A stretch of 64,000 bases of DNA, taken from contig CAJTVJ010000002.1 of NCBI GenBank assembly GCA_910579785.1, positions 42,529 through 106,528 on the forward strand, in the 5' to 3' direction. The position numbers and the translations under genes were made by a program. Origin of the DNA: an uncultured Christensenella sp. Its GTDB lineage: Bacteria; Bacillota; Clostridia; Christensenellales; UBA3700. Positions within the stretch are counted from its first letter, which is position 1. Every line of letters starts with the position of its first letter. Below the pieces are notes generated by a model. It worked only from the letters and a program-made list of their open reading frames with translations, was not told the origin of the DNA and made no database searches. This document shows positions 1,572 to 64,000 of this stretch, piece by piece.

Positions 1572-1583
1572 ATAAAAAATACA

Positions 1584-2567: not shown

Positions 2568-2602
2568 TAAATTATGTTGCAAAGCACTAAGTTAAGCAAA
2601 AT

Positions 2603-2627: not shown

Positions 2628-2634
2628 TGTATTG

Positions 2635-4638: not shown

Positions 4639-4639
4639 C

Positions 4640-5653: not shown

Positions 5654-5675
5654 TTTGCTATCTCCTATATTGATA

Positions 5676-6767: not shown

Positions 6768-6917
6768 ATTTCCTTTTACACCTTTTTATTGTATATATTA
6801 TATATTTATTATTAAATAAAGATTTTTATAAAGCAAACTGCCTATTTGCTCTATAAAAATCTCAATTTACTAGTAGATTACACACGGCTTGCCGTGTGTA
6901 ATCTATATTGTAGTTGC

Positions 6918-8435: not shown

Positions 8436-8614
8436 AATTCACCTCTTATTTTATTTTTGTACAAACATTATAATATATATATTTTTTTTTGTAAAGAGAG
8501 AATTGACTTTTTGTTGAAATAATATTGCAATTCGGCAAATGACATATCTTTTGGTTAAGTTTTTAATTGTTTATAAGAACAGGAATATACAAAGTTTAAT
8601 AATTTGACAAAATA

Positions 8615-8644
8615 TTGACAAGAATATTGAAAAAGTAATATAAT
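8615..8644 (+). promoter_or_regulatory. sigma-A type promoter candidate for nagA
   Basis: TTGACA, 18-nt spacer, TATAAT. A second TTGACA lies 12 nt upstream. Confidence 0.5.
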
Positions 8645-8694
8645 AAACTCGACAGCGCAGTGTGCGGCGACAGTTAATACAGGCAGGTAAAAAG

Positions 8695-9855: not shown

Positions 9856-9887
9856 GATTTTTATGAGATAAGGCAAAGGAGGGATTT

Positions 9888-13090: not shown

Positions 13091-13158
13091 ATTTGCTCCG
13101 TGGGCTATTGATTAAGTTCATGCGAAGTATTTTCACTCATGACACCTAGACAGTAGTT

Positions 13159-21096: not shown

Positions 21097-21803
21097 ACAA
21101 TTTTCAATTTTTAGGAGTGCTTAAAAAGTCGTTTATTACTTATTTACAGACTGGTGCAAGAAGCAATAAAAAACTTGAAATTTTGCATGGAGCGATTTCA
21201 GAAGATTTAAATGAGAGATTAAATGATAAAAATTATTCGGTATATTCATTGGGATATGGATTGGGGAAAGAACACAAAATAGTTGGACGCTATGTCGATA
21301 AGGCTGTTGATATAACGATAGCTGAAAATAATGTTCCCATAGCAGGAATAGCTGTAAAATATATTATGAGTAATTATTCACAGAATTCTAATAATTATTT
21401 TGAGTGTATGCTTGGAGAGACTGCAAATATAAGGTCGGCTAAAATTCCATATTTTCAAATTTTCGCAATACCTGATAGAATACCATATTTTGATAAAAAT
21501 GGAGATATCTTAAAATGGGAAAAGATAAATGAACATAATTTGAAAAAATATATAAAATTATCGGAAGATAATATTGATAATTATTTGCATACGCCTAATA
21601 AGACGTTAGTATTTATAGTACATATTCATGATAGAAATGCTATTGCAGAAATATCGAATAAACTCGAATACGAAAATTATTATTTAAATAACGATTTCGA
21701 TATGGAAATTTCTAAGTTAAGTTTCGATTTCAAAAATACTATAATTTATAACGATTATAATACATTTATGCAAAAGGTGGCATATTCAATTAAAGGCATA
21801 TAA
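21093..21803 (+). CDS. putative cognate type II restriction endonuclease (family not recognised)
   Basis: ATGA overlap with the methyltransferase stop. Same low GC. 236 aa with no recognisable family. The assignment rests on context only. Confidence 0.5.
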   Translation: MNNFQFLGVLKKSFITYLQTGARSNKKLEILHGAISEDLNERLNDKNYSVYSLGYGLGKEHKIVGRYVDKAVDITIAENNVPIAGIAVKYIMSNYSQNSNNYFECMLGETANIRSAKIPYFQIFAIPDRIPYFDKNGDILKWEKINEHNLKKYIKLSEDNIDNYLHTPNKTLVFIVHIHDRNAIAEISNKLEYENYYLNNDFDMEISKLSFDFKNTIIYNDYNTFMQKVAYSIKGI

Positions 21804-21809
21804 AAAATT

Positions 21810-21833
21810 AAGGAGACTTTTGTGAGTCTCCTT
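21810..21833. terminator. hairpin terminator between the RM pair and convergent yerC
   Basis: AAGGAGACT / AGTCTCCTT stem with a 6-nt loop. Confidence 0.65.
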
Positions 21834-21866
21834 TAAATTTATAGTATTTAGTTTATCATTGATACG

Positions 21867-22136
21867 TCAGATAAATTTTTTGTATCCTTCGCCGTATTGC
21901 AGTGCTCGCGATACGCGAGAGAGCGTAGCGGAGGATATGTCGGTCTGCTCTATTACTTGATTGTAGGTCAAGCCTTGTTTGAGGAGCGTTGCCGCCTCTA
22001 TGCGCTGCGCCATTTGTTCGATTTCTTTGTTGGTGCAAAGGTCGTTGAAAAACATTCTGCATTCCTCAGCGGTTGACAGCTTGGAAATCGCCGCATACAG
22101 TTTTGTAATCATTAAGTCCATATGGTCGTTGTTCAT
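21867..22136 (-). CDS. yerC: YerC/YecD family TrpR-like DNA-binding protein
   Basis: 'MAQRIEAATLLKQGLTYNQVIEQTDISSATLSRVSRAL' is typical of the YerC/YecD Trp-repressor-fold family. The ATG lies 1 nt after the ABC ATPase stop. Confidence 0.8.
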   Translation of the reverse strand: MNNDHMDLMITKLYAAISKLSTAEECRMFFNDLCTNKEIEQMAQRIEAATLLKQGLTYNQVIEQTDISSATLSRVSRALQYGEGYKKFI

Positions 22137-49703: not shown

Positions 49704-51008
49704 TTATGCAAAAAGCAATTTTTTTATCGCCGCATAGTACACGTCGTACATCTTTTTGAAATCTTTTATAGATACTCTCTCGTCTTTTTGGTGTATAGTA
49801 CTTTCCATACCTGGGAATATCGGACCGAAAGCCACGCCGCATTTCAAGGCTCTTGCGTAGGTGCCGCCGCCTATCGTGATAGGTTTGGCGTCCTCGCCTG
49901 TGACTTGGTTGTATGCGAGAAGGAGATCCTGCACGAGTTTGTTATTGCTGTCGATATACAACGGGTCGTGGAAGTTGCGCACCTTCACCTCTCTTGCGCC
50001 GAGACTTGTCAATAGTCTTTGCAATATATCTTCCTTTGTGTACGTAACGGGGTGGCGTACGTCGATTATAAGGTGCAGAGCGTCTTTGCCGTCGCTGTCT
50101 TTTTCTATATTTACAACGCCTACGTTGAAGGTGAGATTGCCGCTCTTTTCGTCGCAAAGTTTTACGTCTGCGCCGCTGCCGTCGTTGTGGGCGAGTTTAT
50201 CTTTGAGGAAGCTGTAATTTCCGCCCAGCGCGTCGCTGAGGACGTCGAGCATGTGCCAAAGCGCGTTGTCGCCCTCCCACGGAGTGGAAGCGTGAGCAGG
50301 TTTGCCGTACGCCGTGATATATGTCTTGCCGTCTTTTACTTCTATTTGCGCGTCTTTGTTGTGCGCGGATATTTCGCCGTCTATCACGCAGCTGCATTTT
50401 GCCATGACTACGTTGCCTCTGCTTCCGCCTTGAATATCTTCAAGCCTCTGCGGTATGTCTAAATATACGTCGTATCCGACAAGTCCCTTTTCGCAGTTGA
50501 TCACAGGGAAGTCGCCGTCGGGGGAGAAACCTTTTGTAGGCATCGCGTCCACTTGGTTGTATTTTTCGATACACTTCCAGCCGCTCTCCTCGTTGCCGCC
50601 GAAGATAAAGCGTATTTTACAGTTAGGCTTATATCCCTCTTGCAGCAACTGATTTACGGCATATAGACAGCACATCATCGGTCCTTTGTCGTCGAGTATG
50701 CCTCTGCCAAAGACGTATTCGTCTTTTATTTCGCCGAGTGGATTTGCCGACCAATCGTCGTCATACGGCACGACGTCTATATGTCCGAGTATGCCAAAAG
50801 GCTCGCCGTCGCCCACGTCGCAGGTGCAGTAATATCCGCCTTCGTTGTGTACCTGCATACCCATTTCCTTTGCCGTATTGCAGACAAGGTCGAGACAATC
50901 CGCCACGCCTTTGCCGAACGGAGATCTGTCGCACGGGGCAGCCTGTACGCTGTCTATTGCGATAAGTTGCATTGTTTTTTGCAGCATTTGCTCAAATTGA
51001 TCCTTCAT
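49704..51008 (-). CDS. M20 family dipeptidase (PepV/Sapep-like)
   Basis: 'GHIDVVP', 'GRGILDDKGP' and 'GGNEESG' motifs. Start set at the ATG at 51008 after AAAGGAG; the longer ORF overlaps the gltX promoter region. Confidence 0.85.
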   Translation of the reverse strand: MKDQFEQMLQKTMQLIAIDSVQAAPCDRSPFGKGVADCLDLVCNTAKEMGMQVHNEGGYYCTCDVGDGEPFGILGHIDVVPYDDDWSANPLGEIKDEYVFGRGILDDKGPMMCCLYAVNQLLQEGYKPNCKIRFIFGGNEESGWKCIEKYNQVDAMPTKGFSPDGDFPVINCEKGLVGYDVYLDIPQRLEDIQGGSRGNVVMAKCSCVIDGEISAHNKDAQIEVKDGKTYITAYGKPAHASTPWEGDNALWHMLDVLSDALGGNYSFLKDKLAHNDGSGADVKLCDEKSGNLTFNVGVVNIEKDSDGKDALHLIIDVRHPVTYTKEDILQRLLTSLGAREVKVRNFHDPLYIDSNNKLVQDLLLAYNQVTGEDAKPITIGGGTYARALKCGVAFGPIFPGMESTIHQKDERVSIKDFKKMYDVYYAAIKKLLFA

Positions 51009-51128
51009 ATAGCTCCTTTGACAAAACAAACTTTTTGAAATTATTGCATAAATATTATACACAAATTTTATCAAATGTGTTATATTATTATACGAAAATA
51101 CTGCAAAATCCCAAAAAAGGAAACTAAT

Positions 51129-52577
51129 ATGAATAAGGTAAGAACGAGATTTGCGCCGTCGCCGACGGGCTTTATGCACATAGGAAATTTAAGGACGTGT
51201 CTTTACGCCTATCTGTTTGCGAAGAAAAACAATGGCACTTTTGTGCTTAGGATAGAAGATACCGATCAGGAGAGATATGTCGAAGGAGCCGTCGACGTGA
51301 TATACAGCACTCTCAAAAAGGCAGGTATAGAACACGACGAAGGACCTGATAAAGACGGCGGATACGGACCGTATATCCAAAGCCAGCGCAAATCGCTCTA
51401 TTTGGATTATGCCAAGGAGCTTGTCGAAAAGGGCGGAGCGTATTACTGTTTTTGCGACAAAGCGAGGTTGGAGAGTCTTAAAGACGGCAACGGCGTAGCA
51501 AAATACGACAAGCACTGTCTCAGTCTTTCTAAGGAAGAAGTTGAGAAGAGACTTGCGAATGGCGAGCAGTACGTAATCAGACAGAATATCCCCACTGACG
51601 GCGTGAGCGAGTATGAGGATATGGTATTCGGTCATATCAGCGTACCCAACGAGGATATGGAAGACGGCGTGCTTATCAAGTCGGACGGAATGCCGACGTA
51701 CAATTTCGCCAACGTAGTCGACGACCACCTTATGGCGATAAATTACGTGATAAGAGGCGTCGAGTATCTGTCTTCCACTCCAAAATACAATCTTATGTAT
51801 GACGCTTTCGGTTGGGAGAGACCGCATTATATGCACCTATCTCCGATCATGAAAGACGCTCAGCGAAAACTCTCTAAGAGATACGGCGATGCCAACTTTG
51901 AGGACTTTCTAGATAAGGGATATCTGCCGGAAGCCATCGTCAATTATATCGCGCTTCTCGGTTGGTCTCCAAAGGGTACTGACGAAAAATTGAGTATGCA
52001 GCAGCTTAAAGAGCAGTTTGACGTAGACGGGATATCCAAATCGCCCAGCATATTCGACGAGGCAAAAATGCGTTGGCTCAACGGCGAATATATCAAACAA
52101 ATGCCCCCGACAGAGTTTGCAGAAGTTGCAAGACCTTATTTCGAGCAAAGTAAGGTTGCAGGCAAGTATGATTATACAGAACTTGCAAAGCTTCTCATAC
52201 CGAGAGTTGAGATACTCGGCGAGATACCCGAAAAGGTCAATTTCCTTGAAGAGTTTGGGAAATACGACACTTCTATGTACGAACATAAGAAGATGAAGAT
52301 AACCAAAGAGCTTGCGCTTGCCAATTTGGTTGCGATAAGAGAGGAATTAAAGGACGTCGACGATTGGAGCGATGGCAATCTAAAACAACTCGGCACTGCT
52401 CTTGCAGAAAAGCTTGGAATAAAGAGCGGACAGATATTCCTGCCGTTGAGACTTGCTATCACGGGCGCACAGAGCACTCCCGGCGGCGCGACGGAAATGG
52501 CGGAACTGCTTGGAAAAGAAGAGAGTATGCGCCGTCTAGATTTTTCTATCGAACTGCTAAGCAAAGAAAGTATCTAA
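51129..52577 (+). CDS. gltX: glutamate--tRNA ligase
   Basis: 'RFAPSPTGFMHIGN' (HIGH) and 'KLSKR' (KMSKS) class I signatures. Confidence 0.95.
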   Translation: MNKVRTRFAPSPTGFMHIGNLRTCLYAYLFAKKNNGTFVLRIEDTDQERYVEGAVDVIYSTLKKAGIEHDEGPDKDGGYGPYIQSQRKSLYLDYAKELVEKGGAYYCFCDKARLESLKDGNGVAKYDKHCLSLSKEEVEKRLANGEQYVIRQNIPTDGVSEYEDMVFGHISVPNEDMEDGVLIKSDGMPTYNFANVVDDHLMAINYVIRGVEYLSSTPKYNLMYDAFGWERPHYMHLSPIMKDAQRKLSKRYGDANFEDFLDKGYLPEAIVNYIALLGWSPKGTDEKLSMQQLKEQFDVDGISKSPSIFDEAKMRWLNGEYIKQMPPTEFAEVARPYFEQSKVAGKYDYTELAKLLIPRVEILGEIPEKVNFLEEFGKYDTSMYEHKKMKITKELALANLVAIREELKDVDDWSDGNLKQLGTALAEKLGIKSGQIFLPLRLAITGAQSTPGGATEMAELLGKEESMRRLDFSIELLSKESI

Positions 52578-52653
52578 GTTATGCTCAGCAAATAAAGAGT
52601 AACGTTAAACAAAATCTCATTATAGAAATAAATAAAAATCAAGCGTAATTTTC

Positions 52654-52682
52654 TTTACAATAAGAAATAGTTGTGATATTAT
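52654..52682 (+). promoter_or_regulatory. sigma-A type promoter candidate of the rpsF operon
   Basis: TTTACA, 17-nt spacer, TATTAT. Confidence 0.5.
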
Positions 52683-52766
52683 GCTAATGTATTGTCGGCA
52701 AAAGTCGGCGATATACCCTTGTTCGGACACAAAGTCCGAGCCATTAGACCAAAAGGAGGTATAAAA

Positions 52767-53048
52767 ATGAACAAGTACGAAATGTTGTATATCATCAAGA
52801 ATGATATTACCGACGAGGCAAAACAGGAAGTAGTTGACAAAATGGCTGCGATCATCACGTCCAACGGCGGAGAAGTCGAGAGCACAGACAAGTGGGGTAC
52901 CAAGAAGTACGCTTACCCAATCGACTACACGACTGAGGGCTACTATGTGTTGGTAAACTTTACGGCTCCGGCTACGGTTCCTGAGGAACTCAAAAGATTA
53001 AACCGTATCACAGATGAAATCGTAAGATCTATGATCATCAAGAAGTAA
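52767..53048 (+). CDS. rpsF: 30S ribosomal protein S6
   Basis: 'YEMLYIIKND...KWGTKKYAYPI'. AAAGGAGG RBS. rpsF-ssb-rpsR gene order. Confidence 0.95.
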   Translation: MNKYEMLYIIKNDITDEAKQEVVDKMAAIITSNGGEVESTDKWGTKKYAYPIDYTTEGYYVLVNFTAPATVPEELKRLNRITDEIVRSMIIKK

Positions 53049-53058
53049 GGAGAGAATT

Positions 53059-53481
53059 ATGAACAAAGTTATTTTGATAGGCAACCTGACGAGAGATCCC
53101 GAGTCGGGCAGCACGCAAAGCGGAGTGCAATATTGCAGATTTTCCATTGCAGTCAATCGCAGATTCAACAGAGACGGCAATGAGTCGGCAGATTTTTTCA
53201 ACATAGTATGTTGGAGAGGCTTGGCTGAGATATGCGCCAAGAATTTGCAAAAGGGCAGAAAGGTTTGCGTAGTAGGTTCTATTCAAATTCGCCAATATGA
53301 CGCGCAGGACGGCACCAAGCGTACCGCTGTCGACATTCAGGCTGACGACATAGAATTCCTTCCATCAGCCGCCGGCAGACCTGACGGCGACAACTCTCAA
53401 AGCAATGAGAGCAACTACGGCTCAAACAACAAGTCAAACGGCGGTTTGACTCCCGTAGACGAAGATGATTTACCATTCTAA
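53059..53481 (+). CDS. ssb: single-stranded DNA-binding protein
   Basis: OB-fold N-terminus 'MNKVILIGNLTRDPE' and an acidic 'DEDDLPF' C-terminal tip. Confidence 0.95.
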   Translation: MNKVILIGNLTRDPESGSTQSGVQYCRFSIAVNRRFNRDGNESADFFNIVCWRGLAEICAKNLQKGRKVCVVGSIQIRQYDAQDGTKRTAVDIQADDIEFLPSAAGRPDGDNSQSNESNYGSNNKSNGGLTPVDEDDLPF

Positions 53482-53499
53482 TTAAGGAGATATAAGACT

Positions 53500-53751
53500 A
53501 TGAGTGAAGAAAAGGTAGTTAAGCGTCCTGCTAAAAAGCAAATGTCACGCAAGAAAGTTTGCGTATTTTGCGTAGAGAAGACGGACGAAGTTGATTATAA
53601 AGACATCGCTAAATTGCGCAAATACGTTACAGAAAAGGGCAAGATCGTTCCCAGAAGAATGAGCGGCGTATGCGCTAAGCACCAAAGAGTCGTTACAGAG
53701 GCAGTCAAGAGAGCAAGAGAAATGGCTTTGCTCCCCTATGTAGCTGAATAA
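53500..53751 (+). CDS. rpsR: 30S ribosomal protein S18
   Basis: '[15 protein letters not shown]...[25 protein letters not shown]'. Confidence 0.95.
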
Positions 53752-53771
53752 TTTTAATAAAAAATTATAGT

Positions 53772-53806
53772 CAAGACGTACGGCAACGCAGTACGTCTTG
53801 TTTTTT
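53772..53806 (+). terminator. rho-independent terminator of the rpsF-ssb-rpsR operon
   Basis: CAAGACGTAC / GTACGTCTTG stem followed by T6. Confidence 0.85.
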
Positions 53807-53926
53807 ACGATTTGCAGTTTGCAGTTGAAATGTAGAAAAATTTATACATCGGCGTTATTTTGCTGTGTAAAACGTATTTTTTGTTGATTTTACCAATTTT
53901 TTGTAACAATAAATAATAAATTATTA

Positions 53927-53955
53927 TTGTGTTGCCTAATTCAGTGTGTTATAAT
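53927..53955 (+). promoter_or_regulatory. sigma-A type promoter candidate for the Hsp70-like/SNF2 operon
   Basis: TTGTGT, 17-nt spacer, TATAAT with an upstream TGt (extended -10). AGGAGAG RBS before the ATG at 53976. Confidence 0.5.
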
Positions 53956-53975
53956 TATAGCATAGGAGAGTATAA

Positions 53976-55919
53976 ATGGAAAGTACTGCCAAAAAATTGG
54001 AAATATCCATTGACCTTGGAAGCGACGCGGTCAAGGTCGCGTACGCATATAAAAGCGGCTCGAAGATAAAGTACGGCAAGCTTGCTCCGAGAGACATAAT
54101 GGGGAGCTTTGTCGTGCCTGCCATTGCATATTATGACGAGGACAATATGACTTGGATATTCGGCGAGAGGGTATACAAGAATATTGACAAGTCTTTTGCG
54201 ACGGTAATAAAGATTAAGGCGCTTTTGTCACTGCTTCTCAAAAAGAAGAACAAAGAGCTGAGCAAAAGCAACATGGATCATTATTACAATCGCTGCGACT
54301 TTCCCAAGTTTTACTTTCCGAATAAGAAGAAACTGTCGGAGAACTTTGCCGAAGCGGTGAGCGCCGACATGACGTTTAAGGCGGACAGAACTCCAAGACA
54401 GGTATGCGAGGACTTTTTTGCGTATCTCATCGACGAGACGGTGTTGCCGGCTGTCGAGAGATTGCAGGCGCAGACCGCGATGAATTTCGGCGAAGTGGAA
54501 TATTCGGTAGTATATCCCACCAAGGTCGGCAGGGAATATATAGAGGAACTTGGAAGGATAGTGTCGTCGGCATGCGGCAAACCTTTGAAGAATATGCTGT
54601 CTTCGACAAAGGCGTTGGGGCTTTATGCTTATCACAGAGAGATATTGAAAAAAGGCGAGAGTCTGCTCATATTCGATATGGGAGAGCAGGATATATCCGT
54701 CGCAAAATTTTCTTTGGGTAACAACGACAATTTGATAATCGACGGCGTGGACGGACACAACGAGCCTATGGAGCTTGGCGGCAACGACATTGATTACGCG
54801 GTGCGCGAGTTCATAGAAGACACCATCGGCGGCAGAGAGACCGTGGGCGCGCCTCACCCAGGAAGCGAGGGATATATTGCGGAAAAGGGGCTGCACTCCA
54901 AGCAGTTTTTGATGCTCAACGAGATAAAGAAGGCAAAGACAGCGCTATCTCTTGACGATAAGGTGTATGACGAGGCTTTCCCCGACGGCGTACCAATGTC
55001 GATACACAGAGACGTGATGGTGCAGACTGCTATCACAAGAGAGGACTTTTTGAGTTGTATAGGAGTCGAGTCTTGCGATCATATCGCAAAGGAGATAGTG
55101 GATTATATCAAGAGCGAACTTGACAGACGCATCAACAGGGACGTGGAAAAGATAGTCCTCTCTGGCGGAGTCATTGAGACGTACGGACTTATAGAATTTA
55201 TAGAGAGACAGCTGAGAAAGGCGCATTTAGACGTAGAAATTTTTACGTTTGACGATTACGCGACCAAAGACGACGGCTTTGTGATACTCTCGCACGAAGA
55301 TTCTATGTTTGCTCCTGCGGTGGGCGGAGCGATAGTCGCGTTGATGGGCTATGAATTAAAGACGGCAGTCGCGTTGGCATACGGCACCTGGCTTTTTGGC
55401 GTCGTTGGCGGCAGGAAAGAAAAGATATTGGAAATATTCCTCGAAAGAGGCAGGGTGCTGCCTAAGTCGGGCGGCGAGTACTTTACTACGACGTACGTCA
55501 AATATAATAATTGGTCGTCAAGCGTCAAGAACGAAGAGATATTTTCAACTACGCTGGGCGAGCGCGGCGACGTAATAGGCGAGCCTGGCAGCGAGAAGAG
55601 AAGACGGCAGGAGAAGAACATAGACCTCAAAGTCGTCGCAGGCGGAGCCAACAAGGGTGAGATACTTTTTTATCACATAGACGGCGCACAGTTGAGGCGA
55701 GTGGAGATACAGGGACTGCTGCATTTTAAAGAGGGCGTGAGGATAGACGGAGACGGCAGGGCTACTCCTTTTATAGCCAATGATTTGGATAAGAACGGAG
55801 TGTACGGCGAGTTGAGTTTTAGATACGTCGGCAGCCGTGTGGTAAAACGTGCGTATTACAAAGACATAATGCTTAAATTTGCAGGAGTAGACGACTTTGA
55901 CGTCGAGAACTCGGATTGA
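53976..55919 (+). CDS. Hsp70 family (actin-fold) ATPase-like protein lacking the helical lid
   Basis: 'ISIDLGSDAVKVAY' (phosphate-1), 'IFDMGEQDISVAKF' (phosphate-2 position) and 'KIVLSGGVIETYG' (adenosine motif), followed by a beta-rich region resembling SBD-beta. Confidence 0.7.
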   Translation: MESTAKKLEISIDLGSDAVKVAYAYKSGSKIKYGKLAPRDIMGSFVVPAIAYYDEDNMTWIFGERVYKNIDKSFATVIKIKALLSLLLKKKNKELSKSNMDHYYNRCDFPKFYFPNKKKLSENFAEAVSADMTFKADRTPRQVCEDFFAYLIDETVLPAVERLQAQTAMNFGEVEYSVVYPTKVGREYIEELGRIVSSACGKPLKNMLSSTKALGLYAYHREILKKGESLLIFDMGEQDISVAKFSLGNNDNLIIDGVDGHNEPMELGGNDIDYAVREFIEDTIGGRETVGAPHPGSEGYIAEKGLHSKQFLMLNEIKKAKTALSLDDKVYDEAFPDGVPMSIHRDVMVQTAITREDFLSCIGVESCDHIAKEIVDYIKSELDRRINRDVEKIVLSGGVIETYGLIEFIERQLRKAHLDVEIFTFDDYATKDDGFVILSHEDSMFAPAVGGAIVALMGYELKTAVALAYGTWLFGVVGGRKEKILEIFLERGRVLPKSGGEYFTTTYVKYNNWSSSVKNEEIFSTTLGERGDVIGEPGSEKRRRQEKNIDLKVVAGGANKGEILFYHIDGAQLRRVEIQGLLHFKEGVRIDGDGRATPFIANDLDKNGVYGELSFRYVGSRVVKRAYYKDIMLKFAGVDDFDVENSD

Positions 55920-55932
55920 TACGGAGGGCAAG

Positions 55933-58740
55933 ATGAATAAAAAATATACTTTAAAGTGCAGCGGAGGGGCGTTTGAAAAAGACGTACAGCGGTCAAAGAT
56001 AGCCGGTGAAGTACGTCCGTTTGACGCAAAGATGGCAGAGCTGACCAAGTGCGCGGAAGAGCTTGACAGGTACGACGACTTTGCAGAACTTAAAATCAAA
56101 CCCGACGTATACAAAAATCAAGGCGGCAAATACGGCATCGTGCCATTGGCGGACAAAGGCGGTCAGACGCTGTTGCGCGGGCAGCAATCGGCGGTGACGG
56201 TGTTTTTAAAAGAGCTGAGAGGCTTTGGACTTTTGGCTGACGTAGTGGGAAGCGGCAAGACTTTTGAGGCTTGTGCCGTACTCAGCGAACTTGCGGTGAG
56301 AGGAAAGATGCGGTCATTGCTGCTTGTCGTTCCGTCGCAGGTATACGACAGCTGGATCAACGTGTTGGAGAATCTTTTCGGATTAGGCGAGGGCGTACTG
56401 CTCAAAGTCAAAGATCCTGATTTCGGAGAGTGCGACAGCGTGTTGGACGGATACGTTCAAAGACCAAAAAGACCCGTGATAGTCAAGACAGAAGACTTTG
56501 TCAAATGGAAAGAAGGACAGATTTCCGACGTGCTTTTTGACGTGGTTGTCGTCGACGAAGCGCATCACCTGTGCACGGAAGAGGGAGAGTACGCCAAGGC
56601 AATGAAGCTGCTCTCAATGCTCATGGTGACAAAGAAAAAAGCCAATTCCACTTATTGTGTGCTGCTTTCGGCAACGCCGCACTCGGGCAACCTTGACAAG
56701 ATGTTCAGACTGTGGTATTTCATACGCTGTAAGGGCGGTAATCCAGACGACTTTGACGTCAAAGACGACAAGGACCGTACGGCGGATTATAAAAAAGAAA
56801 AAGAGTATTACAGACTCAACGTATGCCGCGGAGCCAACACAGTGTCGGAGTTTATCACAGCAGTAAAGCAATTTGAGATAGACAACAATTTCAAATCGGC
56901 ATTCCATGAGTATTTGAAGAAAAAGGGAGAGCTTAGCAAGTGGAACAGCTATTCTCTCGGAGAGAAGCAAGTTGCGCGCGAAGAATTTCTTGACGAGAAC
57001 GACGACGTGCGTCAAGAGGTGTTGAGAAGAGTCGCAGGAGCATACCACAACGGCGTGTTGAGAACGATAATGATACGCCAGCCCAATGAGCTTAGCAAGT
57101 CGAGATTTGTATACAACCGCTATTTCTTCCCTACGAATACGTCGTTGAAAGTCTTGGATACGGTTGACGTCAACGGCAAATCTATAAGAGTGCATTTGGA
57201 CAATATAAACACGTCGCAGGCAATAGAGAGCGGCGGAGAGTTCTATTCGCTCAAAGGTTATTCCGAAGAGCATTGCCGTCACGACAATTCGCAAGAGGCG
57301 TATGCCGAGGTGTTGGTGTCCAAGATATTGGGCAAACTCGGCTCCTTTGACGACACGGATATATTTGATAAACAAAACTCCCAAAAATATTATTGGGAAC
57401 AATTTGAGAGAAAGACAGTCGCCGAGAGCAACAACAAATTTATCTTTATGCCGGCAGTAGCCGACAGCTTTGAATATAAACTCAAAGAGGCTAAGGAGAT
57501 ACTTGCTCAGCATAAAGACGAGCGTGTGCTGATGTTCTTTGATTACGATCTGCCGAGGACCAGCAAGGGGTACAGACAGTGGAACAAGGTCATAGAGGCT
57601 TTTGAAAACGACGCTGACATCAAAGGCAGAGTTATTGTCGGCACGGCTGAGGAAAAGGATAAGAACGTCAAGAAGTTTTTGCAGAAATCCGACGCGATAC
57701 TCATCGTCACCGACCCGGCATTTACAGAGGGCGTCAACTTGCAAGACAGCAGGATAATCATCAACTTCCAAGTCACCCCCGACCCTCTTGCGATGGATCA
57801 GAGGATAGGTCGAGTATTCAGACTTGGACAGTCGAGCGACGTCAAGATATACTCGCTGGCGGATATGAATAAGCTTGAAGGCTTTGCGCTTGCATATTTC
57901 AACAGCATAGGTTTGATATCCAGCAACAGCGGTGACGCGACGATCATAGCAGGCAGTAACAATGAAAGAATGGTCGCATTGCGCTGTCCGGCGTGCGGCA
58001 AAGTCGCGCTGTATACCAAAGAGGACTACGAAATCGCCAAGAAAAAGGGCGAGCTGTATTGTTTCAGCGACAGAAAGATATGCTGTCTCGACAACGAAAA
58101 AGGCACGCTCATGGAAGAAATCAACGTCTATGAATTCAAATGTATGAGTTGTTCGACGACATTCTCGCGCAGCGTGGGCGAGGGCGGATATAAGTGTATA
58201 TCCAAAAACAACGACGACAGAGGCACTATGTGCAGCAGCGGACTGCCTGGCGACAGGGAGTACTATTGTTCAAAGATATGCGCGATGAGACATTGCAGCA
58301 GATTCAAGGGCGAGTTTAAGGGCAGGTGCAAAGTGCTCAAAGCATATGAGGAAAATCCCAATATCGCGTCTTCCGACTTGCAGATAATATGCGCCAAGTG
58401 CGAATATAGGGCGGAGTGTCCGTCAAGATGCAGATACGGCATAGGCAAGGCGAGTATCGAGGGATGTAGCTCTTGCAGATTTGCAGAATGTTCGCCAAAA
58501 CCTTATTCAATAGTCTTTGACGAAAAGTGGTCTGCAAAATGTCCGATATGCGAGCAGAGAGGCGACAAGGGACGTCTATATCCTGTGGTTGCAAGGACGT
58601 TTGCCGCATTTATAAGAGCCGCATGGGACTTCAAGCACGACGGCGGAGAGTCGTTCTGCAATAATCTTATGAAAGAAGCCAGCAAGGTTGCGGACATCAA
58701 GGCTATATTGTCTATGGACGATATGGCAGACAGGAGGTAA
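55933..58740 (+). CDS. SNF2/SF2 family helicase fused to a C-terminal Cys-rich (multi zinc-ribbon-like) region
   Basis: 'VGSGKTFEA' (motif I), 'VVVDEAHHL' (II), 'LLSATPHSG' (III), 'TEGVNLQ' (V) and 'DQRIGRVFRLGQ' (VI). Many Cys residues, several in CxxC pairs, are encoded between 57982 and 58560. Confidence 0.8.
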   Translation: MNKKYTLKCSGGAFEKDVQRSKIAGEVRPFDAKMAELTKCAEELDRYDDFAELKIKPDVYKNQGGKYGIVPLADKGGQTLLRGQQSAVTVFLKELRGFGLLADVVGSGKTFEACAVLSELAVRGKMRSLLLVVPSQVYDSWINVLENLFGLGEGVLLKVKDPDFGECDSVLDGYVQRPKRPVIVKTEDFVKWKEGQISDVLFDVVVVDEAHHLCTEEGEYAKAMKLLSMLMVTKKKANSTYCVLLSATPHSGNLDKMFRLWYFIRCKGGNPDDFDVKDDKDRTADYKKEKEYYRLNVCRGANTVSEFITAVKQFEIDNNFKSAFHEYLKKKGELSKWNSYSLGEKQVAREEFLDENDDVRQEVLRRVAGAYHNGVLRTIMIRQPNELSKSRFVYNRYFFPTNTSLKVLDTVDVNGKSIRVHLDNINTSQAIESGGEFYSLKGYSEEHCRHDNSQEAYAEVLVSKILGKLGSFDDTDIFDKQNSQKYYWEQFERKTVAESNNKFIFMPAVADSFEYKLKEAKEILAQHKDERVLMFFDYDLPRTSKGYRQWNKVIEAFENDADIKGRVIVGTAEEKDKNVKKFLQKSDAILIVTDPAFTEGVNLQDSRIIINFQVTPDPLAMDQRIGRVFRLGQSSDVKIYSLADMNKLEGFALAYFNSIGLISSNSGDATIIAGSNNERMVALRCPACGKVALYTKEDYEIAKKKGELYCFSDRKICCLDNEKGTLMEEINVYEFKCMSCSTTFSRSVGEGGYKCISKNNDDRGTMCSSGLPGDREYYCSKICAMRHCSRFKGEFKGRCKVLKAYEENPNIASSDLQIICAKCEYRAECPSRCRYGIGKASIEGCSSCRFAECSPKPYSIVFDEKWSAKCPICEQRGDKGRLYPVVARTFAAFIRAAWDFKHDGGESFCNNLMKEASKVADIKAILSMDDMADRR

Positions 58741-58741
58741 T

Positions 58742-60406
58742 ATGGCGAAGATACATATCGGAAGCGAATATTGCAAGACATTCGACAGTATTGCAAAGCT
58801 TTATAAAGAGGGCTGCGTCGAAGAGGGAGTCATCATCCGTATCGACGGAGACAAGATAGTCACGCCGTCGCATGAATTCGTGCTGTCTAGGAACAGGACT
58901 ATCAAAAACGACGCGGAGAAAGCCGCTGTGATCAACGACAGCGGAGCGTCTTGGTTTGGCGCGTTTAGGGGCGAGAAGTTTAAAAACAACACCGCAGAGT
59001 GGCTGATGTTTGTCGAGACGATAAAGGAGCATTTTCGCCGTAATTATTCGGTGTTGGAATATTATCCTAGGACGGAAGCCATATCTCAGGAATATATTGA
59101 CAGACAGATAAAGAAGATAAACAACGTACTTAATTGTTTTTATAAAGATTACGTATTTGAGGTGCGCAGAGGCAGCGAGAAGGAAGGCACTGACGACGTA
59201 TACGGCGCTTCTTTCAGAATGGAGATAACAGACGGTACGGGAGAAGCCGTGCCGGTACTCGGCAAGATTTATTTCCGCAAGGTCAAAGGCGGATTTGCGC
59301 CGTATCGCAGCGACGAAGCCGAGCTGATAGACAGTCAGATAACAAGTGATTTCGACGAGGGCGCAAAGAGAGAGGGAACAACGCAAAACAGCGCGGCTTT
59401 GACGGATATCGTCGTCAATGCACTCGACAATCTTGTCAACGGGTCAGACAGCGATATATCCGCCAATTTAGTATTTACCGACCCGACCGATAAGCTTGCC
59501 GTCGAGCGTATGGTAGACAAAGGTCCCAACGAAAAGGTTGACCTCACGTGCCAGAGTATGTCGCTTATCAACATATCGCATTTTAAGTGGCGCAATGACA
59601 ATTACGATATTTTGCTTGGAGGAAAAGTCGTGCTAAAAGCATTGATGGGCATAGGCGACAGACTGACTTTGAGTTGCAACTCCTGCGCGGCTAAGAGCGT
59701 GCTTGTCGATTCCAATAGAATAAAACTAAGATTAGACGGACAGATGAAGAGCGTCAATATCAACGCGGATATGAGCGATTTGAATTTGACGGAGAATGCC
59801 ATTGAAATTATCAATGAAAGCGGCTTGTTCTCCGACCATATCAAACTTATTTCCTGCAACGAAAACGCCCGTCTTGCAGGCGTATGCAGAAGATATGTGT
59901 GCGCGGAAGAGATGATAAAGATAGAGAGCGGACAGGGTAAAAACAAGAGGTATATCTATAAGTGCAAGCACTGTCCTCATCCCGAGGTCATATTCAAATG
60001 CGACGACGGTGTGATACGTTATACCAAGGACTTGGTATTTGTCAGAGACGCAATGACTTTGAGACCTGCCAACGAGAGCGTGACTTGCTCTTGCTGCGGA
60101 AGAGTTTATACCAAGATAAACTCAAAAAAGAGCTATCTATGCGATTTCTGCAAAGTCACAGACAGCGGACTTGACAGCCTCGACGAAGCTGAATATAAGC
60201 AGGGCAACAGGCTATACAGAAAGTACAGCGGAATGTTGCCGCTTGCAGGCAGGATATTGAGATCAAAAGATAAAAAGTATTGCAAAGAGGACGAAGACTG
60301 CATCATGTTTATAGTAGGAAGCGAAGTGTATATCTTCAACAAGGACGAGGCAAGCGATAGCGGCTTTCTCAAAAATCCTCAACGTAAGATAGGAGGTGCG
60401 CAATGA
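58742..60406 (+). CDS. hypothetical protein with C-terminal CxxC clusters
   Basis: ATG lies 1 nt after the helicase stop, behind AGGAGG. 554 aa with no recognisable family. CxxC pairs 'CNSC', 'CKHC', 'CSCC' and 'CDFC'. Confidence 0.65.
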   Translation: MAKIHIGSEYCKTFDSIAKLYKEGCVEEGVIIRIDGDKIVTPSHEFVLSRNRTIKNDAEKAAVINDSGASWFGAFRGEKFKNNTAEWLMFVETIKEHFRRNYSVLEYYPRTEAISQEYIDRQIKKINNVLNCFYKDYVFEVRRGSEKEGTDDVYGASFRMEITDGTGEAVPVLGKIYFRKVKGGFAPYRSDEAELIDSQITSDFDEGAKREGTTQNSAALTDIVVNALDNLVNGSDSDISANLVFTDPTDKLAVERMVDKGPNEKVDLTCQSMSLINISHFKWRNDNYDILLGGKVVLKALMGIGDRLTLSCNSCAAKSVLVDSNRIKLRLDGQMKSVNINADMSDLNLTENAIEIINESGLFSDHIKLISCNENARLAGVCRRYVCAEEMIKIESGQGKNKRYIYKCKHCPHPEVIFKCDDGVIRYTKDLVFVRDAMTLRPANESVTCSCCGRVYTKINSKKSYLCDFCKVTDSGLDSLDEAEYKQGNRLYRKYSGMLPLAGRILRSKDKKYCKEDEDCIMFIVGSEVYIFNKDEASDSGFLKNPQRKIGGAQ

Positions 60407-63400
60407 GACGTAACGGTATGTTTTCAACAACAGAGAATATAGATTATTCTCCGTCGACGGTCAAGACTTTCGGCGGCAAAAAGCTATTTTTGCTGATACT
60501 CTCGTCATTAGCGGCAGTCAGCGATTTTATCAGTATGATAATATTCGCAGTCGCAGGCTACGGCGGTATAATTGCGGTGCCGATACTTTTGCTTGTGCTT
60601 GACGCCTTATTTATCGTAGGGATATGTTTTTCCAATTTCCGATTTAAATATGCGCTTGGCATATGGATAAGTTATATACTTTTTGCCGTGATATTGCTCT
60701 CTTTCATATCTATGACGGGATCAGATAGATACGTCGTTATGACCACGGCTGCGATTGCTGTCAATACACTGGCGCATATCGTGCTTTTTGCGGCGATAAT
60801 ATTTGCAGGTATCTTTCCGTTGCTTAAAAGCAGCAAAAAGATAAAGGCGGTCATGATTGCAGTTACTGCGGCCGCTGCGATTGCAATGTTTGCCTTCACC
60901 GTATTTTTCTCTATCAACGGATATTTCGGTCAAGGTTTTGTTGCCGAATACAGAGTGGTCAAATATCAATATCAAGAAAAAGGCGATTGCTATATCGCAT
61001 ATTCCATAGAGCCGGGCAGAGGCAGAAAGGTCTTGATACCCGAAGAGTTCAACGGCAAGCCGGTTGTGGGAATAAACAGCAGTATATTTGCAGAAACAAG
61101 CATAGACGACATATGTTTGCAGAGCAAGCAAAAGCTGCCCATCATCTCGCAATGGGATTTATCGTCCAACTTTAACAGCAATTTGAGGATAGGAGTAGAC
61201 AAGGAGCTTATCGACGCTTACAGGCAAGATAATATTGAGAAAAGTCTGCAATTTGTCAATAATCTATACCCCTGCAATTTGGCTGACGACGAGACGTATA
61301 TCACCTTTGCATACGACAATTATGACTCTCTTGTGCAGTTGGTGCCGACTTGGATAGGCAAGAAAGGCGAGACTTTTGATATGTCGTATGCCGACGACGT
61401 CGAATTTTTTAAGCATATGGACCAAAGCGACGTCGCAGACCTCATATGGTGTTGGGAAAACAACAACGCCAAGGTTTTAAGAGGTTTTAAAGACTCAAAG
61501 GGTTATTTCCTGCAAGGACTCAAAGTCAACGACAGTATTCAAAAGGTTGCCGTTGAATTCGACAGTGTGTTCAAGGCGACGGTAGAGGAAGACAACGACG
61601 ACCTTTACGAGCCGTCGGACGATTTTAAGACAACGAAATTGGACGGCAAGAGTTATGACAACCGCTTTGTCACAGTCAATACGGTCGACGATATGACAGC
61701 CGAACTTCAAAGAGAGGGCTTTAATTTAACGTGGAATTACAGATCGCAACACGACTATATTGATTTGGAAAGCTTACGTCCCGTATTGGAGAATGAAGAG
61801 AGCAATTATTACAACAGAAATAGCAAAAAGAGCTTTAAAATTCAGCCGGTTTGGGAACTGCGCGGAGCGACTGATTTGCTCATCTCCGCCAATCAAGACA
61901 GTTACGTATACGGCGACGATGTCAAATTGAGCGCCAGCGCAAAGGCGCCCAATGCCGATTGCGTGCTTGAATACAGATGGGGCATAATGCTTTTCGATCA
62001 ATCGTATAAGGGCAAAGATTACGTTATGACCAACGTGCATCCCGACCAAAGCGGCACTTATTATTTAAATGTGATAGCAAGTTCCGACAAGACGTCATTG
62101 ACGTCTAGGGAGATGATCAGCAAAGATATTGTCATAAATAAAAAGTCTTTGAACATTACCTGGTATCAGCCCGAAGATATGGTATTTGACGGGCAGACAA
62201 AGACGTTGACGTTCAGCAGCGGCGCCGGCGAGTTGATAAACAACGACAATTTGGGCAGCGAGTATGCGACGGCGGATAATTTGACCAATACCAACGCAGG
62301 AAATTATGTTGCTTCCATCACTCTTAAAAACGGGCTTGAAGAGAAATATCAAATTGTTGTCGGCGGCAACTATTCATATGCGATATTGCCCCGTCCTGTC
62401 GAAGCAGTCTGGACTGTCGGCGATTACGTCTACAACGGATCGTATCAAGGACCTTCCATAGACGCGAAAGATATCAACGGAATGTCGTTGGGGCTGATAC
62501 TGGTCAATTTCAACAAGATCAATGCAGGCAGATATACGGCAATAGCAACATCCGCGGACACCAATTACAAAATAAGCAATTCGACTCACGTATATGAGAT
62601 ACAGAAAAAGAGCGCGAGCGTATCTTGGGGAGCATTAAATCTTGTCTATTCAGGAAGCGGTCAGCATCCAAGCGTAGCCAGCTTGGTCGGCATGGTGCAG
62701 GGCGACGACAAAGTGCTTTCCACGCTGATATACAGAGGTTACGAGACCAACGTCAATGCAGGAGAGGGATATAAAGTGACGGTCGAGCTGCCTGCCAACA
62801 GCAACTATAAATTTGACACGCTGCAATCGACGGTGTATAATATATTCAAGCGCGTTATCACGGCGCAGTGGAATTCTGCGCGCACCTTTGAATACAACGG
62901 CAGGGAGCAAAACGCGACGGTATCGTCGTTTAGCAATATCGTACAAAGCGACGCGCAAAGCGTGATATCTTCTCTTATATACGGCGGCAAAGAGATCAAC
63001 GTAGGCAGCAATTACACAACGACGGCGCAGCTTTCTCAACAGGCGAGTGCCAACTATGAAGCGCTGGGTATGTCGTGCAACTTCTCGATAGACAAGAGAG
63101 AGATCTTCGCGGTATGGGGAGGGACCAACTTTGTATATGACGGCTTGTCGCATATTCCAAGCGTGGTTTCGTTGCAGAACGTCGTTGAGCAAGACAGGGC
63201 TGAGGTTGTCGGCGGATTGAAATATACCGGCGCAAAGGTCAACGCAGGCGAGAATTATATTGCTACTGCGACATTGAGCGACAGCAGTCAGCGCAACTAT
63301 AAGCTGACGAATACGACTTGTAAATTTAATATAGAAAAGGCGCAGGCAAACGCGGTATGGAGCGAAGTCTCGATCAGGGACGGCAAGGTGATACCGCCTG

Positions 63401-63615
63401 CGCTAGTAATAAGCGGCACAGCGTATGACGGAGAGGTGAGCGTTGTGAGATATACGTATCGCAATTCTGACGGACAGATTGTCTCGTCTATTCCTGCCGC
63501 AAACGGCGTGTATACAGTATACGTCGAGATATCGAGCGACAATTTCAAATTGTCGGGCTTGCAAAAGACTTTCACTGTCAGCGGAATTTCCGGCGGTGCA
63601 AAGGAGGTGGCATAA
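60403..63615 (+). CDS. polytopic membrane protein with a large extracytoplasmic region containing six MBG-type repeats
   Basis: ATGA overlap with the preceding stop. About 6 N-terminal TM helices and one BspA-like LRR unit, then six repeats of about 80 aa each ('...W....(Y/F).Y(D/N/S)G...P......NAG.Y.......NYK'). Confidence 0.75.
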   Translation: MRRNGMFSTTENIDYSPSTVKTFGGKKLFLLILSSLAAVSDFISMIIFAVAGYGGIIAVPILLLVLDALFIVGICFSNFRFKYALGIWISYILFAVILLSFISMTGSDRYVVMTTAAIAVNTLAHIVLFAAIIFAGIFPLLKSSKKIKAVMIAVTAAAAIAMFAFTVFFSINGYFGQGFVAEYRVVKYQYQEKGDCYIAYSIEPGRGRKVLIPEEFNGKPVVGINSSIFAETSIDDICLQSKQKLPIISQWDLSSNFNSNLRIGVDKELIDAYRQDNIEKSLQFVNNLYPCNLADDETYITFAYDNYDSLVQLVPTWIGKKGETFDMSYADDVEFFKHMDQSDVADLIWCWENNNAKVLRGFKDSKGYFLQGLKVNDSIQKVAVEFDSVFKATVEEDNDDLYEPSDDFKTTKLDGKSYDNRFVTVNTVDDMTAELQREGFNLTWNYRSQHDYIDLESLRPVLENEESNYYNRNSKKSFKIQPVWELRGATDLLISANQDSYVYGDDVKLSASAKAPNADCVLEYRWGIMLFDQSYKGKDYVMTNVHPDQSGTYYLNVIASSDKTSLTSREMISKDIVINKKSLNITWYQPEDMVFDGQTKTLTFSSGAGELINNDNLGSEYATADNLTNTNAGNYVASITLKNGLEEKYQIVVGGNYSYAILPRPVEAVWTVGDYVYNGSYQGPSIDAKDINGMSLGLILVNFNKINAGRYTAIATSADTNYKISNSTHVYEIQKKSASVSWGALNLVYSGSGQHPSVASLVGMVQGDDKVLSTLIYRGYETNVNAGEGYKVTVELPANSNYKFDTLQSTVYNIFKRVITAQWNSARTFEYNGREQNATVSSFSNIVQSDAQSVISSLIYGGKEINVGSNYTTTAQLSQQASANYEALGMSCNFSIDKREIFAVWGGTNFVYDGLSHIPSVVSLQNVVEQDRAEVVGGLKYTGAKVNAGENYIATATLSDSSQRNYKLTNTTCKFNIEKAQANAVWSEVSIRDGKVIPPALVISGTAYDGEVSVVRYTYRNSDGQIVSSIPAANGVYTVYVEISSDNFKLSGLQKTFTVSGISGGAKEVA
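62140..63590 (+). repeat. six tandem coding repeats of about 245 bp (MBG-type domains)
   Basis: Repeat starts at about 62140, 62390, 62603, 62849, 63094 and 63339. The repeats are diverged at the DNA level and conserved at the protein-motif level. Confidence 0.7.
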
Positions 63616-64000
63616 TGAAGTGCAGTATGTGCGGCAGCAATATCGAAAGACCGTTGGAACTTTACAACGGAAGATGGTGCTGTCCAAGTTGCAAAAAGGA
63701 CATCTTCCCCGACGTGGATACTGAATTTGCCATCACTCCGCGCAACAGAGAATTGTTTGTGCGCTCGGAGGAATACTATTTTAAGTGGCTGACCTCGACG
63801 GAGGAGAGCAAATCGACGAGATTTAAGTATCTTGACAAGGCGGTCAGTCTGTGTTATGAATCGGCGTTTGAATATCATCCGTCCGCGCTTATGAGGTTGG
63901 GATATTATTACGAACGAGGATATGCCGACTTTAATACCAGCAGCGCAGAGCGTTGGAGAGTGGCATATTTTTATTATAAAGCGTTGCTTTTCAACACGCA
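63615..64000 (+). CDS. zinc-ribbon plus Sel1-like repeat protein (3' end outside window)
   Basis: Own translation: 'MKCSMCGSNIERPLELYNGRWCCPSCKK...HPSALMRLGYYYERGYADF...AERWRVAYFYYKAL'. TAATG overlap with the preceding stop. The frame is open to the window edge. Confidence 0.65.
   Translation, partial: MKCSMCGSNIERPLELYNGRWCCPSCKKDIFPDVDTEFAITPRNRELFVRSEEYYFKWLTSTEESKSTRFKYLDKAVSLCYESAFEYHPSALMRLGYYYERGYADFNTSSAERWRVAYFYYKALLFNT

Follow-up and report, generated by a model that had tools for sequence, protein, structure and literature searches.

In eukaryotes, the INO80, SWR1 and SWI-SNF chromatin remodellers combine a Snf2 ATPase with actin-fold subunits. In bacteria, the type III CoCoNuTs encode a stand-alone Hsp70-like protein with a nucleotide-binding and a substrate-binding domain and a UPF1-like superfamily 1 (SF1) helicase whose Walker A is followed by a very large helical insertion, together with coiled coils, zinc ribbons and AAA+ proteins in extended operons (PMC11090510). 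Bacterial VPS4-like AAA+ ATPases that are paired with a TPR/6TM partner are also on record (PMC11237479). Here we analysed a gene cluster that combines related parts, located in a stretch of 64,000 nt (the window) from an uncultured Christensenella sp. (GCA_910579785.1, contig CAJTVJ010000002.1, positions 42,529 to 106,528 of the forward strand). Five open reading frames (ORFs) on the same strand, A to E, occupy positions 53976 to 64000 of the window. They are the front of a real eight-gene operon, A to H, with one promoter after the rpsR terminator and one terminator after H, and a single lineage of uncultured gut Clostridia, of the Christensenellales type, passes this operon on as a unit. 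It is undescribed as a system; its parts come from known superfamilies, but their combination matches nothing that has been characterised.

The boundaries and genes that lie within the window are the following:

53772 to 53806, plus strand: terminator of the rpsF-ssb-rpsR unit, read from the sequence, with a 10-bp stem, a 9-nt loop and T6
53927 to 53955, plus strand: promoter-like site, called by eye, with TTGTGT at 53927 to 53932, a 17-nt spacer and an extended -10 element, TGtTATAAT, at 53947 to 53955
53976 to 55919, plus strand: gene A, 647 amino acids (aa), Hsp70-like
55933 to 58740, plus strand: gene B, 935 aa, SNF2-family ATPase
58742 to 60406, plus strand: gene C, 554 aa, orphan
60403 to 63615, plus strand: gene D, 1070 aa, polytopic membrane protein
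63615 to 64000 and past the window edge, plus strand: gene E, of whose 380 aa the first 128 are inside the window

The predicted rpsR terminator is the upstream boundary of the operon. The rpsR gene ends at 53751 and is followed by the hairpin arms CAAGACGTAC and GTACGTCTTG at 53772 to 53800 and by the T-run at 53801 to 53806. Both this terminator and the promoter-like site were found by eye at the place given in an earlier note on this DNA; a consensus scanner flagged neither, as the 9-nt loop exceeds its 8-nt limit and the -35 element is weak. A Shine-Dalgarno sequence, AGGAGA, is present at 53964 to 53969 upstream of A. The start of B is the ATG at 55933 and not the upstream TTG proposed by the ORF listing. 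Direct reading confirmed all four junctions of the earlier note: a 13-nt gap between A and B, tacggagggcaag, which contains GGAGGG; a single nucleotide between B and C (TAA-t-ATG); an ATGA overlap between C and D; and a TAATG overlap between D and E. AGGAGG or AGGAGA within the upstream gene precedes every downstream start, and the same translational coupling is seen at distant loci. The GC content of the operon, 0.44 to 0.48, equals that of the rest of the window, in agreement with the host-like base composition noted before.

Window positions 50403 to 64000 are identical, with 0 mismatches, to positions 1 to 13598 of a public contig (GCA_949525975.1; hereafter L002). Because of this base-for-base identity, L002 was taken as the continuation of the operon, which indeed runs past the window edge as had been suggested. 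It supplies the remaining genes, E (380 aa), F (491 aa), G (249 aa) and H (379 aa), and a GC-rich hairpin with a T-run about 20 nt past the H stop, which we read as the operon terminator. Downstream of it follow a 900-nt gap and an unrelated ABC-transporter unit with its own consensus promoter. Terminator and gap therefore define the eight-gene unit A to H. Thus, the earlier description of one tightly coupled operon holds, and the unit is larger than the five genes seen at first: it comprises eight genes, and ten in other clades.

The A homologues fall into 120 clusters and make up a closed family that reaches down to 30% identity; the named sources are Clostridia, Christensenellales, Candidatus Borkfalkia and Candidatus Coproplasma. 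Scanning one genome for each GTDB species gave 46 loci, and 45 of them are in metagenome-assembled genomes labelled Christensenella, Christensenellaceae, Christensenellales, Clostridia, Clostridiales, Firmicutes, Borkfalkia or Protoclostridium. The exception (L051, CANQTY010000007.1, 74 to 751 and 10001 to 10249) is a metagenome-assembled genome labelled Bacilli, in which an A homologue (46% identity) is cut off after its first 81 residues at a contig end, and a Y-like helicase fragment (see below) lies on the opposite strand about 9 kb from the A fragment; either the bin is mislabelled or the operon is rearranged here. In a tblastn census of about 50 loci, which included the 46 species-level genomes and metagenome contigs, the order A to F is constant wherever the DNA extends far enough, and loci centred on H orthologues always have G and H at the operon end. 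Even the deepest branches, in which A is 32 to 35% identical, keep A-B-C-D. The earlier note had asked for co-occurrence of A, B and C across unrelated genomes. Genes A to F are indeed kept across deep divergence (A down to 32%), but only within a single lineage of the Christensenellales type.

The flanking genes are always housekeeping or metabolic genes and vary by clade (rpsR with gltX, spo0A, nrdD, ornithine carbamoyltransferase or aldo-keto reductase); the genes downstream of the operon also vary from clade to clade. The location beside core genes and outside any obvious island, noted before for the window, recurs at these loci, and the defence islands or mobile elements that the earlier note proposed to look for are not the setting of these loci. 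Relatives of A were found neither in phage and plasmid collections (tblastn) nor in IMG/VR viral contigs, and scanning the operon proteins against PHROGs returned generic ATPase matches only. With no copy in phage, plasmid or viral contigs, a mobile origin was rejected. Non-coding RNAs or tRNAs that could serve as island markers were not found in the window. In one clade (L003, 9149 to 9839; L004, 6099 to 6882), a nucleotidyltransferase/NTase-substrate-binding pair that resembles MNT-HEPN-type toxin-antitoxin genes is encoded directly upstream of A, next to spo0A.

At loci in which the neighbouring GltX is 83 to 88% identical, the operon proteins show the following identities:

A: 55 to 65%
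B: 67 to 83%
C: 48 to 66%
D: 32 to 45%
E: 51 to 74%
F: 50 to 67%

In contrast, H is 70 to 75% identical across the whole lineage, while its operon partners go down to 22 to 47%. The operon proteins are thus far more diverged than GltX and H levels off at 70 to 75%, which argues for vertical inheritance of an operon most of which evolves fast. A close clade already has H at no more than 75% identity, after which the value reaches its plateau (L002, 16616 to 17755; orthologues P0163 to P0282).

Two architectures exist around H. The window's clade has the eight-gene form (L002, L056), and at least three other, deeper clades have a ten-gene form in which two genes, X and Y, are added between F and G (L052, 2798 to 9209; L054, 2719 to 9217; L057, 2858 to 9197). 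Neither X nor Y was found elsewhere in the window. X is about 650 aa long, belongs to no family and has a C-terminal CHECFHAFQ sequence with an HExxH motif. Y is an SF1 helicase of about 1500 aa with DUF4011, AAA_11 and AAA_12 matches and an MTES_1575 restriction-endonuclease-like end; its Walker A is near residue 300 and its Walker B near residue 1055, with about 750 aa inserted between them. Y matches the PADLOC defence candidate PDC-S37 at E 1e-115, and also Hhe. In a single clade, a 118-aa protein with two predicted transmembrane (TM) segments is encoded directly after H (L052, 11195 to 11551); it is not conserved elsewhere.

Protein A carries the full Hsp70 fold according to its AlphaFold model (pLDDT 85.4, pTM 0.83, built on a 17-sequence alignment), i.e., an actin-like nucleotide-binding domain and a β-sandwich. 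The modelled domains are:

A, residues about 1 to 458: nucleotide-binding domain
A, residues about 462 to 635: β-sandwich resembling the β-part of the Hsp70 substrate-binding domain, with no helical lid

In Foldseek searches, the model matches full-length Hsp70 proteins over about 650 columns (BiP, DnaK, Hsc70, Ssb and Hsp110; E 1e-22 to 1e-19), among them BiP (5e84, E 2.9e-22) and DnaK (4b9q). The actin/Hsp70 fold that had been read from the sequence is thus borne out by structure prediction, although A has no Pfam match. The gathering score of PF00012 is not reached, a precomputed PF00012 match exists in only one of the 120 A homologues, and the A family profile reaches DnaK weakly (E 0.12). 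In the alignment, D13, G15, K79, G236 and G397-G398 are invariant, the phosphate-2 motif reads GE(E/Q)D instead of GGGT, and the glutamate of NEPTAA is seemingly replaced. Because some phosphate motifs are kept and others are altered, ATP hydrolysis by A is uncertain. Pfam scans of the operon proteins found no DnaJ or GrpE domain.

Protein B is, by its motifs, a SNF2-family ATPase with an intact Walker A, DEAH box and motif VI. Both SNF2-rel_dom (47.8 bits) and Helicase_C (40 bits) score above the Pfam gathering score, and GSGKT is found at position 106, DEAH at 208, SATP at 246 and QRIGR at 623. The protein ends in a cysteine-rich tail, which had also been seen before:

57985 to 58659, plus strand: Cys-rich tail of B, residues 685 to 909, with 23 Cys, of which 20 are invariant in all 13 orthologues compared

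Its patterns include CxxC pairs, CxxCx5CPxxC and Cx3Cx4Cx10C, and the tail could form several Zn sites or an Fe-S cluster, the latter being unusual for a SNF2 protein. The curated models that rank best on B are BrxHI, DrmD, DpdE, HmaA and ZorD, ahead of RapA. In PADLOC, B scores 97 to 73 bits for the DrmD, BrxHI, DpdE and Hma helicases, and the NCBIfam DrmD model gives 99.5 bits.

Two further proteins, C and E, also carry zinc-ribbon or CxxC-rich modules, and the invariant cysteines of B, C and E confirm this trio as originally proposed. C contains 19 Cys, 12 of them invariant in the orthologue alignment, and several zinc-ribbon-like CxxC pairs are located in its C-terminal half. It has no Pfam, NCBIfam, PADLOC or PHROGs match and remains the cysteine-rich orphan that it was first taken for; its only outside similarity is a weak, marginal match to the eL43 zinc ribbon in a PDB profile search. 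A hidden nuclease in C was considered and rejected, since Pfam scans of 14 orthologues and the PDB profile search returned zinc-finger and zinc-ribbon noise only. In E, the N-terminal module is the following:

63621 to 63692, plus strand: zinc ribbon of E (CxxC...CxxC), with C3, C6, C23 and C26 invariant

It is followed by one Sel1-like helical stretch, seen by eye, and by a C-terminal domain with no assigned family. The Sel1 label is weak: E does not reach the Pfam Sel1 threshold, and a match was obtained for one of 15 orthologues (E 0.055). F is a long coiled-coil protein of 491 aa for which Pfam, NCBIfam and PADLOC scans revealed no relatives.

Protein D is the fastest-evolving member of the operon, with orthologues of 960 to more than 1900 aa. 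Two regions can be delineated:

60481 to 60927, plus strand: predicted membrane domain of D, residues 27 to 175, with five hydrophobic segments by hydropathy
62161 to 63342, plus strand: five tandem repeats of about 80 aa each, within residues 587 to 980, detected by a hidden Markov model (HMM)

By the positive-inside placement of Lys and Arg, the C-terminal part is predicted to be outside the cell. Comparison of orthologues shows a conserved NFRF(K/R)Y sequence in the predicted cytoplasmic loop and a GxFGQG sequence after the last segment. The repeats span residues 587-652 (weak), 664-736, 741-817, 817-899 and 899-980 and have the signature YxG...NAGxY. An HMM was needed for their detection, as a BLAST comparison of D with itself showed no repeats; a model made from three copies detects the fourth at E 1e-13 and the fifth weakly. 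The earlier label of a membrane protein with MBG repeats thus stands for the five TM segments and the tandem repeats, but the MBG part of it is weak. The window's D has no MBG match in Pfam at E up to 1, and orthologues have weak or faint precomputed matches to MBG_2 or MBG_3; the repeats may be MBG-like. The deepest-branching D proteins are enlarged, with 1464 to 1976 aa or more versus 960 to 1340 aa elsewhere (L005, 7281 to 12147; L059, 17108 to 22223; L058, 9182 to 13576), and the length of the predicted extracellular stalk therefore appears to be highly variable. An identical D protein is found again in more than 200 data blocks.

In the operon, G is always encoded directly upstream of H. 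At the 50% identity level, 161 sequences represent the G family, and their lengths all fall between 225 and 265 aa; G itself, a helical protein, has 249 aa. In an 80-sequence family alignment, a linker of low complexity is followed by a conserved tail at the extreme C-terminus, with the general form ...D-I-x-D-I-V, which is ...DINIDDIV here and IDDI(V/L), ISDIL or VDGL elsewhere. The structural model of G is all-helical with a long hairpin, but its confidence is low (pLDDT 58) and all Foldseek matches are above E 1. Direct comparison rejected G as a paralogue of F.

H is a classical single-domain AAA+ protein with Walker A (GAPGTGKT), Walker B (FVDECE), a YVG pore loop and Arg fingers. In Pfam, it matches AAA and, marginally, Vps4_C (21.5 bits versus a cut-off of 21.3). 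The NCBIfam scores are 145 bits for Cdc48 and 132.7 bits for CdvC (cut-off 650), the latter with E 1.5e-38 and almost end to end, and the last 113 residues match archaeal CdvC/Vps4 structures best (CdvC 4lcb, E 0.002). The N-terminal 95 residues form a family-specific three-helix region, and no MIT domain was found by a profile of residues 1 to 100. BLASTP against human VPS4A gives 29% identity in the AAA core alone. The PADLOC match of H to IetA (110 bits) reflects generic AAA similarity.

The similarity of H to Vps4_C and CdvC and the tail of G suggested an ESCRT-III identity of G or F, which was rejected by sequence. The 80-sequence G profile found no ESCRT-III, PspA or Vipp1 chain in the PDB, none of the 80 family members matches PspA_IM30 or Snf7 in Pfam, and hhalign of G with E. 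coli PspA and yeast Snf7 gave a probability below 1%, with PspA and Snf7 sequences that were entered by hand. What we infer after these tests is narrower, namely an AAA+ unfoldase with a tail-bearing partner.

Two observations concern DNA outside the operon. In a near-identical strain (L001), a 151-aa DUF3592 gene (8196 to 8651) lies between gltX and rpsF; it is absent from the window (about 52580 to 52690) and from L002 (2176 to 2364) and thus represents a strain-level indel shortly upstream of the region that holds the operon. Furthermore, window positions 20001 to 22000 have a low GC content (0.30 versus about 0.44) and span plus-strand ORFs at 19651 to 21096 and 21093 to 21803; this stretch may be foreign DNA or a gene pair of the surface-polysaccharide type.

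What could such an operon do? A membrane-anchored multi-ATPase machine for the surveillance or exclusion of foreign nucleic acid, with a logic like that of Zorya, is a possible answer that we tentatively rank first because of the SNF2 and PDC-S37-type helicases, the optional X-Y pair, the fast evolution and the diversifying outer stalk; the modular gene content, eight versus ten genes, also supports it. In the mechanism that we infer beyond a conserved operon with these domains, D would anchor the machine in the membrane, where its extracellular repeat stalk could sense a surface event while the NFRF[K/R]Y loop would face the cytoplasm. A cytoplasmic scaffold would be formed by C and E, with their zinc ribbons, together with the coiled-coil proteins F and G. 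B, with its intact SNF2 motifs, would translocate on DNA, and in the ten-gene form X and Y would join the machine, with Y acting on DNA. A and H might assemble, gate or reset and recycle the complex, and H probably engages G through the extreme C-terminal tail of G. A bolder version, which we consider doubtful, would make this a new class of envelope-triggered machine in which the 5-TM protein D controls a SNF2 translocase via an Hsp70-like chaperone and a CdvC/Cdc48-like unfoldase that recognises the G tail. Such a vertically fixed, chaperone-gated apparatus for immunity or DNA handling would have no counterpart in any defence, secretion or division system described so far.

Several observations weigh against a surveillance function. 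The operon is confined to one lineage and is syntenic beside rpsR across species in which A is only 55 to 66% identical; housekeeping genes surround it, and phages, plasmids and viral contigs yielded no copy. H is conserved like a core gene, at 70 to 75% across the lineage, and the ATPase competence of A is uncertain from its altered motifs. Neither a nuclease nor another effector can be recognised in the window's eight-gene form, the operon lacks a methyltransferase or any other marker of self versus non-self, and A, C, D, E, F, G and X match no PADLOC model. The evidence on the defence idea of the earlier note is divided: the fast-evolving specific proteins and the PDC-S37-type Y of the ten-gene form are in its favour, and the strictly vertical inheritance is against it. 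Much of the same evidence would fit a lineage-specific housekeeping machine that connects the envelope with either the nucleoid or a surface organelle, for example in DNA uptake or export, chromosome tethering or the assembly and turnover of D fibrils, with the ATPases as motors and assembly chaperones. This explanation, which we regard as unlikely though by no means negligible, accords with the strictly vertical inheritance at a single locus between housekeeping genes, the conservation of H, the strong-looking extended -10 promoter next to a ribosomal-protein operon, the host-like GC content, the missing mobile-element copies and the nuclease-free eight-gene form; the recurrence of the exact D protein also implies that D is not hypervariable between strains. 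It has difficulty with specific proteins that evolve two to four times faster than the adjacent GltX and with the optional X and Y, of which Y belongs to a defence-candidate family. In addition, Pfam and NCBIfam scans found no recognisable competence, secretion, sortase or division components, and we know of no role of a SNF2 motor in envelope assembly.

The other explanations fare worse. A surveillance of RNA or translation of the CoCoNuT type, in which the Hsp70-like protein would bind RNA or ribosomes and aberrant or viral RNA would be the target of the zinc ribbons, the coiled-coil proteins and, in the ten-gene form, the UPF1-like helicase, is suggested by the parts common with type III CoCoNuTs (PMC11090510), by the distance between Walker A (about 300) and Walker B (about 1055) in Y and by the weak eL43-type zinc-ribbon match of C. 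It is improbable, as neither the McrB-like GTPase nor the DUF2357 of McrC, which define those systems, occurs in any of the ten proteins, no HEPN domain or other RNase came to light and the window's form has no UPF1-like helicase. Moreover, SNF2 motors act on double-stranded DNA. Even less probable is an ESCRT-like membrane-remodelling module, with G as a divergent ESCRT-III/PspA polymer with a MIM-like tail, H as the Vps4/CdvC disassembly ATPase and D as the membrane partner. The Vps4_C match of H, its near end-to-end alignment with CdvC and the similarity of its last 113 residues to archaeal CdvC/Vps4 structures point this way, as do the features of G (about 245 aa, all-helical, a long hairpin, a low-complexity linker and an acidic-hydrophobic tail) and its position next to H; bacterial VPS4-like ATPases paired with TPR/6TM partners provide a precedent (PMC11237479). 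These points are outweighed by the negative profile, Pfam and hhalign results for G, by the absence of Foldseek matches below E 1 for its low-confidence model and by the lack of a MIT match in H, the restriction of its VPS4A similarity to the AAA core and the slightly higher score of Cdc48 D2, and the SNF2 and SF1 helicases would be left unexplained. That the genes are functionally unrelated and merely packed together is scarcely credible in view of the same order at 22 to 47% protein identity, the different neighbourhoods and the conserved translational coupling.

The operon is larger than first described, and established views are not yet overturned by it. Nevertheless, no family model is passed by six of its eight proteins (A and C to G), and a whole branch of abundant, mostly uncultured gut bacteria conserves eight to ten genes that are predicted to be transcribed together, which leaves a large gap in our picture of a habitat that has been sampled well. 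An immune function would mean that a lineage can fix an elaborate defence built on helicases and pass it on vertically, and it would add an Hsp70-fold protein, Cdc48/Vps4-type remodellers and a surface sensor to the known components of bacterial immunity. A housekeeping function would instead reveal an apparatus, new for bacteria, that joins the envelope to DNA and that uses a pairing of Snf2 and actin/Hsp70 folds otherwise known from eukaryotic chromatin remodellers. In both cases, the G-tail/H pair and the 20 invariant cysteines in the B tail offer concrete biochemical entry points.

How, then, does the operon compare with known systems? No system in PADLOC, NCBIfam, Pfam or PHROGs places the gene set, and the literature searches found no description of it, only partial analogies; the curated libraries and the literature thus agree with the earlier statement that no system of this composition has been described. 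Running PADLOC on all ten proteins yielded generic helicase and AAA cores only, plus PDC-S37/Hhe for Y. The two NTPase folds that were first recognised, the Hsp70-like A and the Snf2-type B, are both real, but the full operon contains three in the eight-gene and four in the ten-gene form.

The likeness to INO80, SWR1 and SWI-SNF is an analogy only and consists in the pairing of a protein of the actin/Hsp70 (ASKHA) fold with a Snf2 ATPase, here by translational coupling. It does not imply homology; A is Hsp70-like with a substrate-binding β-sandwich and is not an actin or Arp, and no HSA domain was found in B, although no search aimed at one was made. The archaeal CdvB-CdvC or ESCRT-III-Vps4 systems and the bacterial VPS4-like pairs (PMC11237479) resemble the operon in that a single-domain AAA+ protein, here with a marginal match to the Vps4_C helix, is encoded beside a small helical protein with a conserved C-terminal tail, accompanied by genes for a membrane protein and a protein of TPR/Sel1-like type. 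Different from ESCRT, however, G fails the ESCRT-III sequence tests, H has no detectable MIT domain and is as near to Cdc48 D2, and the helicases have no ESCRT counterpart. Type III CoCoNuTs have in common with the operon the Hsp70-like nucleotide-binding and substrate-binding domains, coiled coils, zinc ribbons and AAA+ proteins, and, in the ten-gene form only, a UPF1-like SF1 helicase with a giant insertion. In contrast to them, the operon encodes a SNF2 ATPase and a surface membrane protein and lacks the McrB-type GTPase, McrC DUF2357 and HEPN effectors; the ten proteins show no match to McrB, an AAA_5-type GTPase or DUF2357.

The helicases of DISARM, BREX, Dpd and Hma (DrmD, BrxHI, DpdE and the Hma helicases) are the best-scoring curated relatives of B, but B scores far under the equivalog cut-offs of 610 to 950 bits, and its 20-Cys tail is foreign to those families. 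The partners are also absent (DrmA/B/C and the methylase; PglX, PglZ and BrxC; the Dpd 7-deazaguanine genes). For DISARM, DrmD reaches 99.5 versus 610 bits on B and no other Drm model matches A or C to H; for BREX, the matches are partial ones of the BrxHI core on B, with no other Brx or Pgl model. An IetS-type protease, as in IetAS, is not encoded in the operon.

Zorya is patchily distributed, whereas the operon is vertically inherited in one lineage. The operon has no stator of the MotAB/ZorAB type, no ZorC and no Mrr nuclease on B; the NCBIfam ZorD model gives 19.5 versus 1500 bits on B, and D has no ZorA or ZorB match. D is, by prediction, a 5-TM protein with an extracellular stalk, and the Hsp70-like, AAA+, zinc-ribbon and coiled-coil proteins are additional here. 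Nonetheless, both systems co-encode a membrane component with a SNF2 ATPase, the core of B matches ZorD in PADLOC (1.9e-13), and the proposed logic, in which an event at the envelope would be passed on to a cytoplasmic DNA motor, is common to both.

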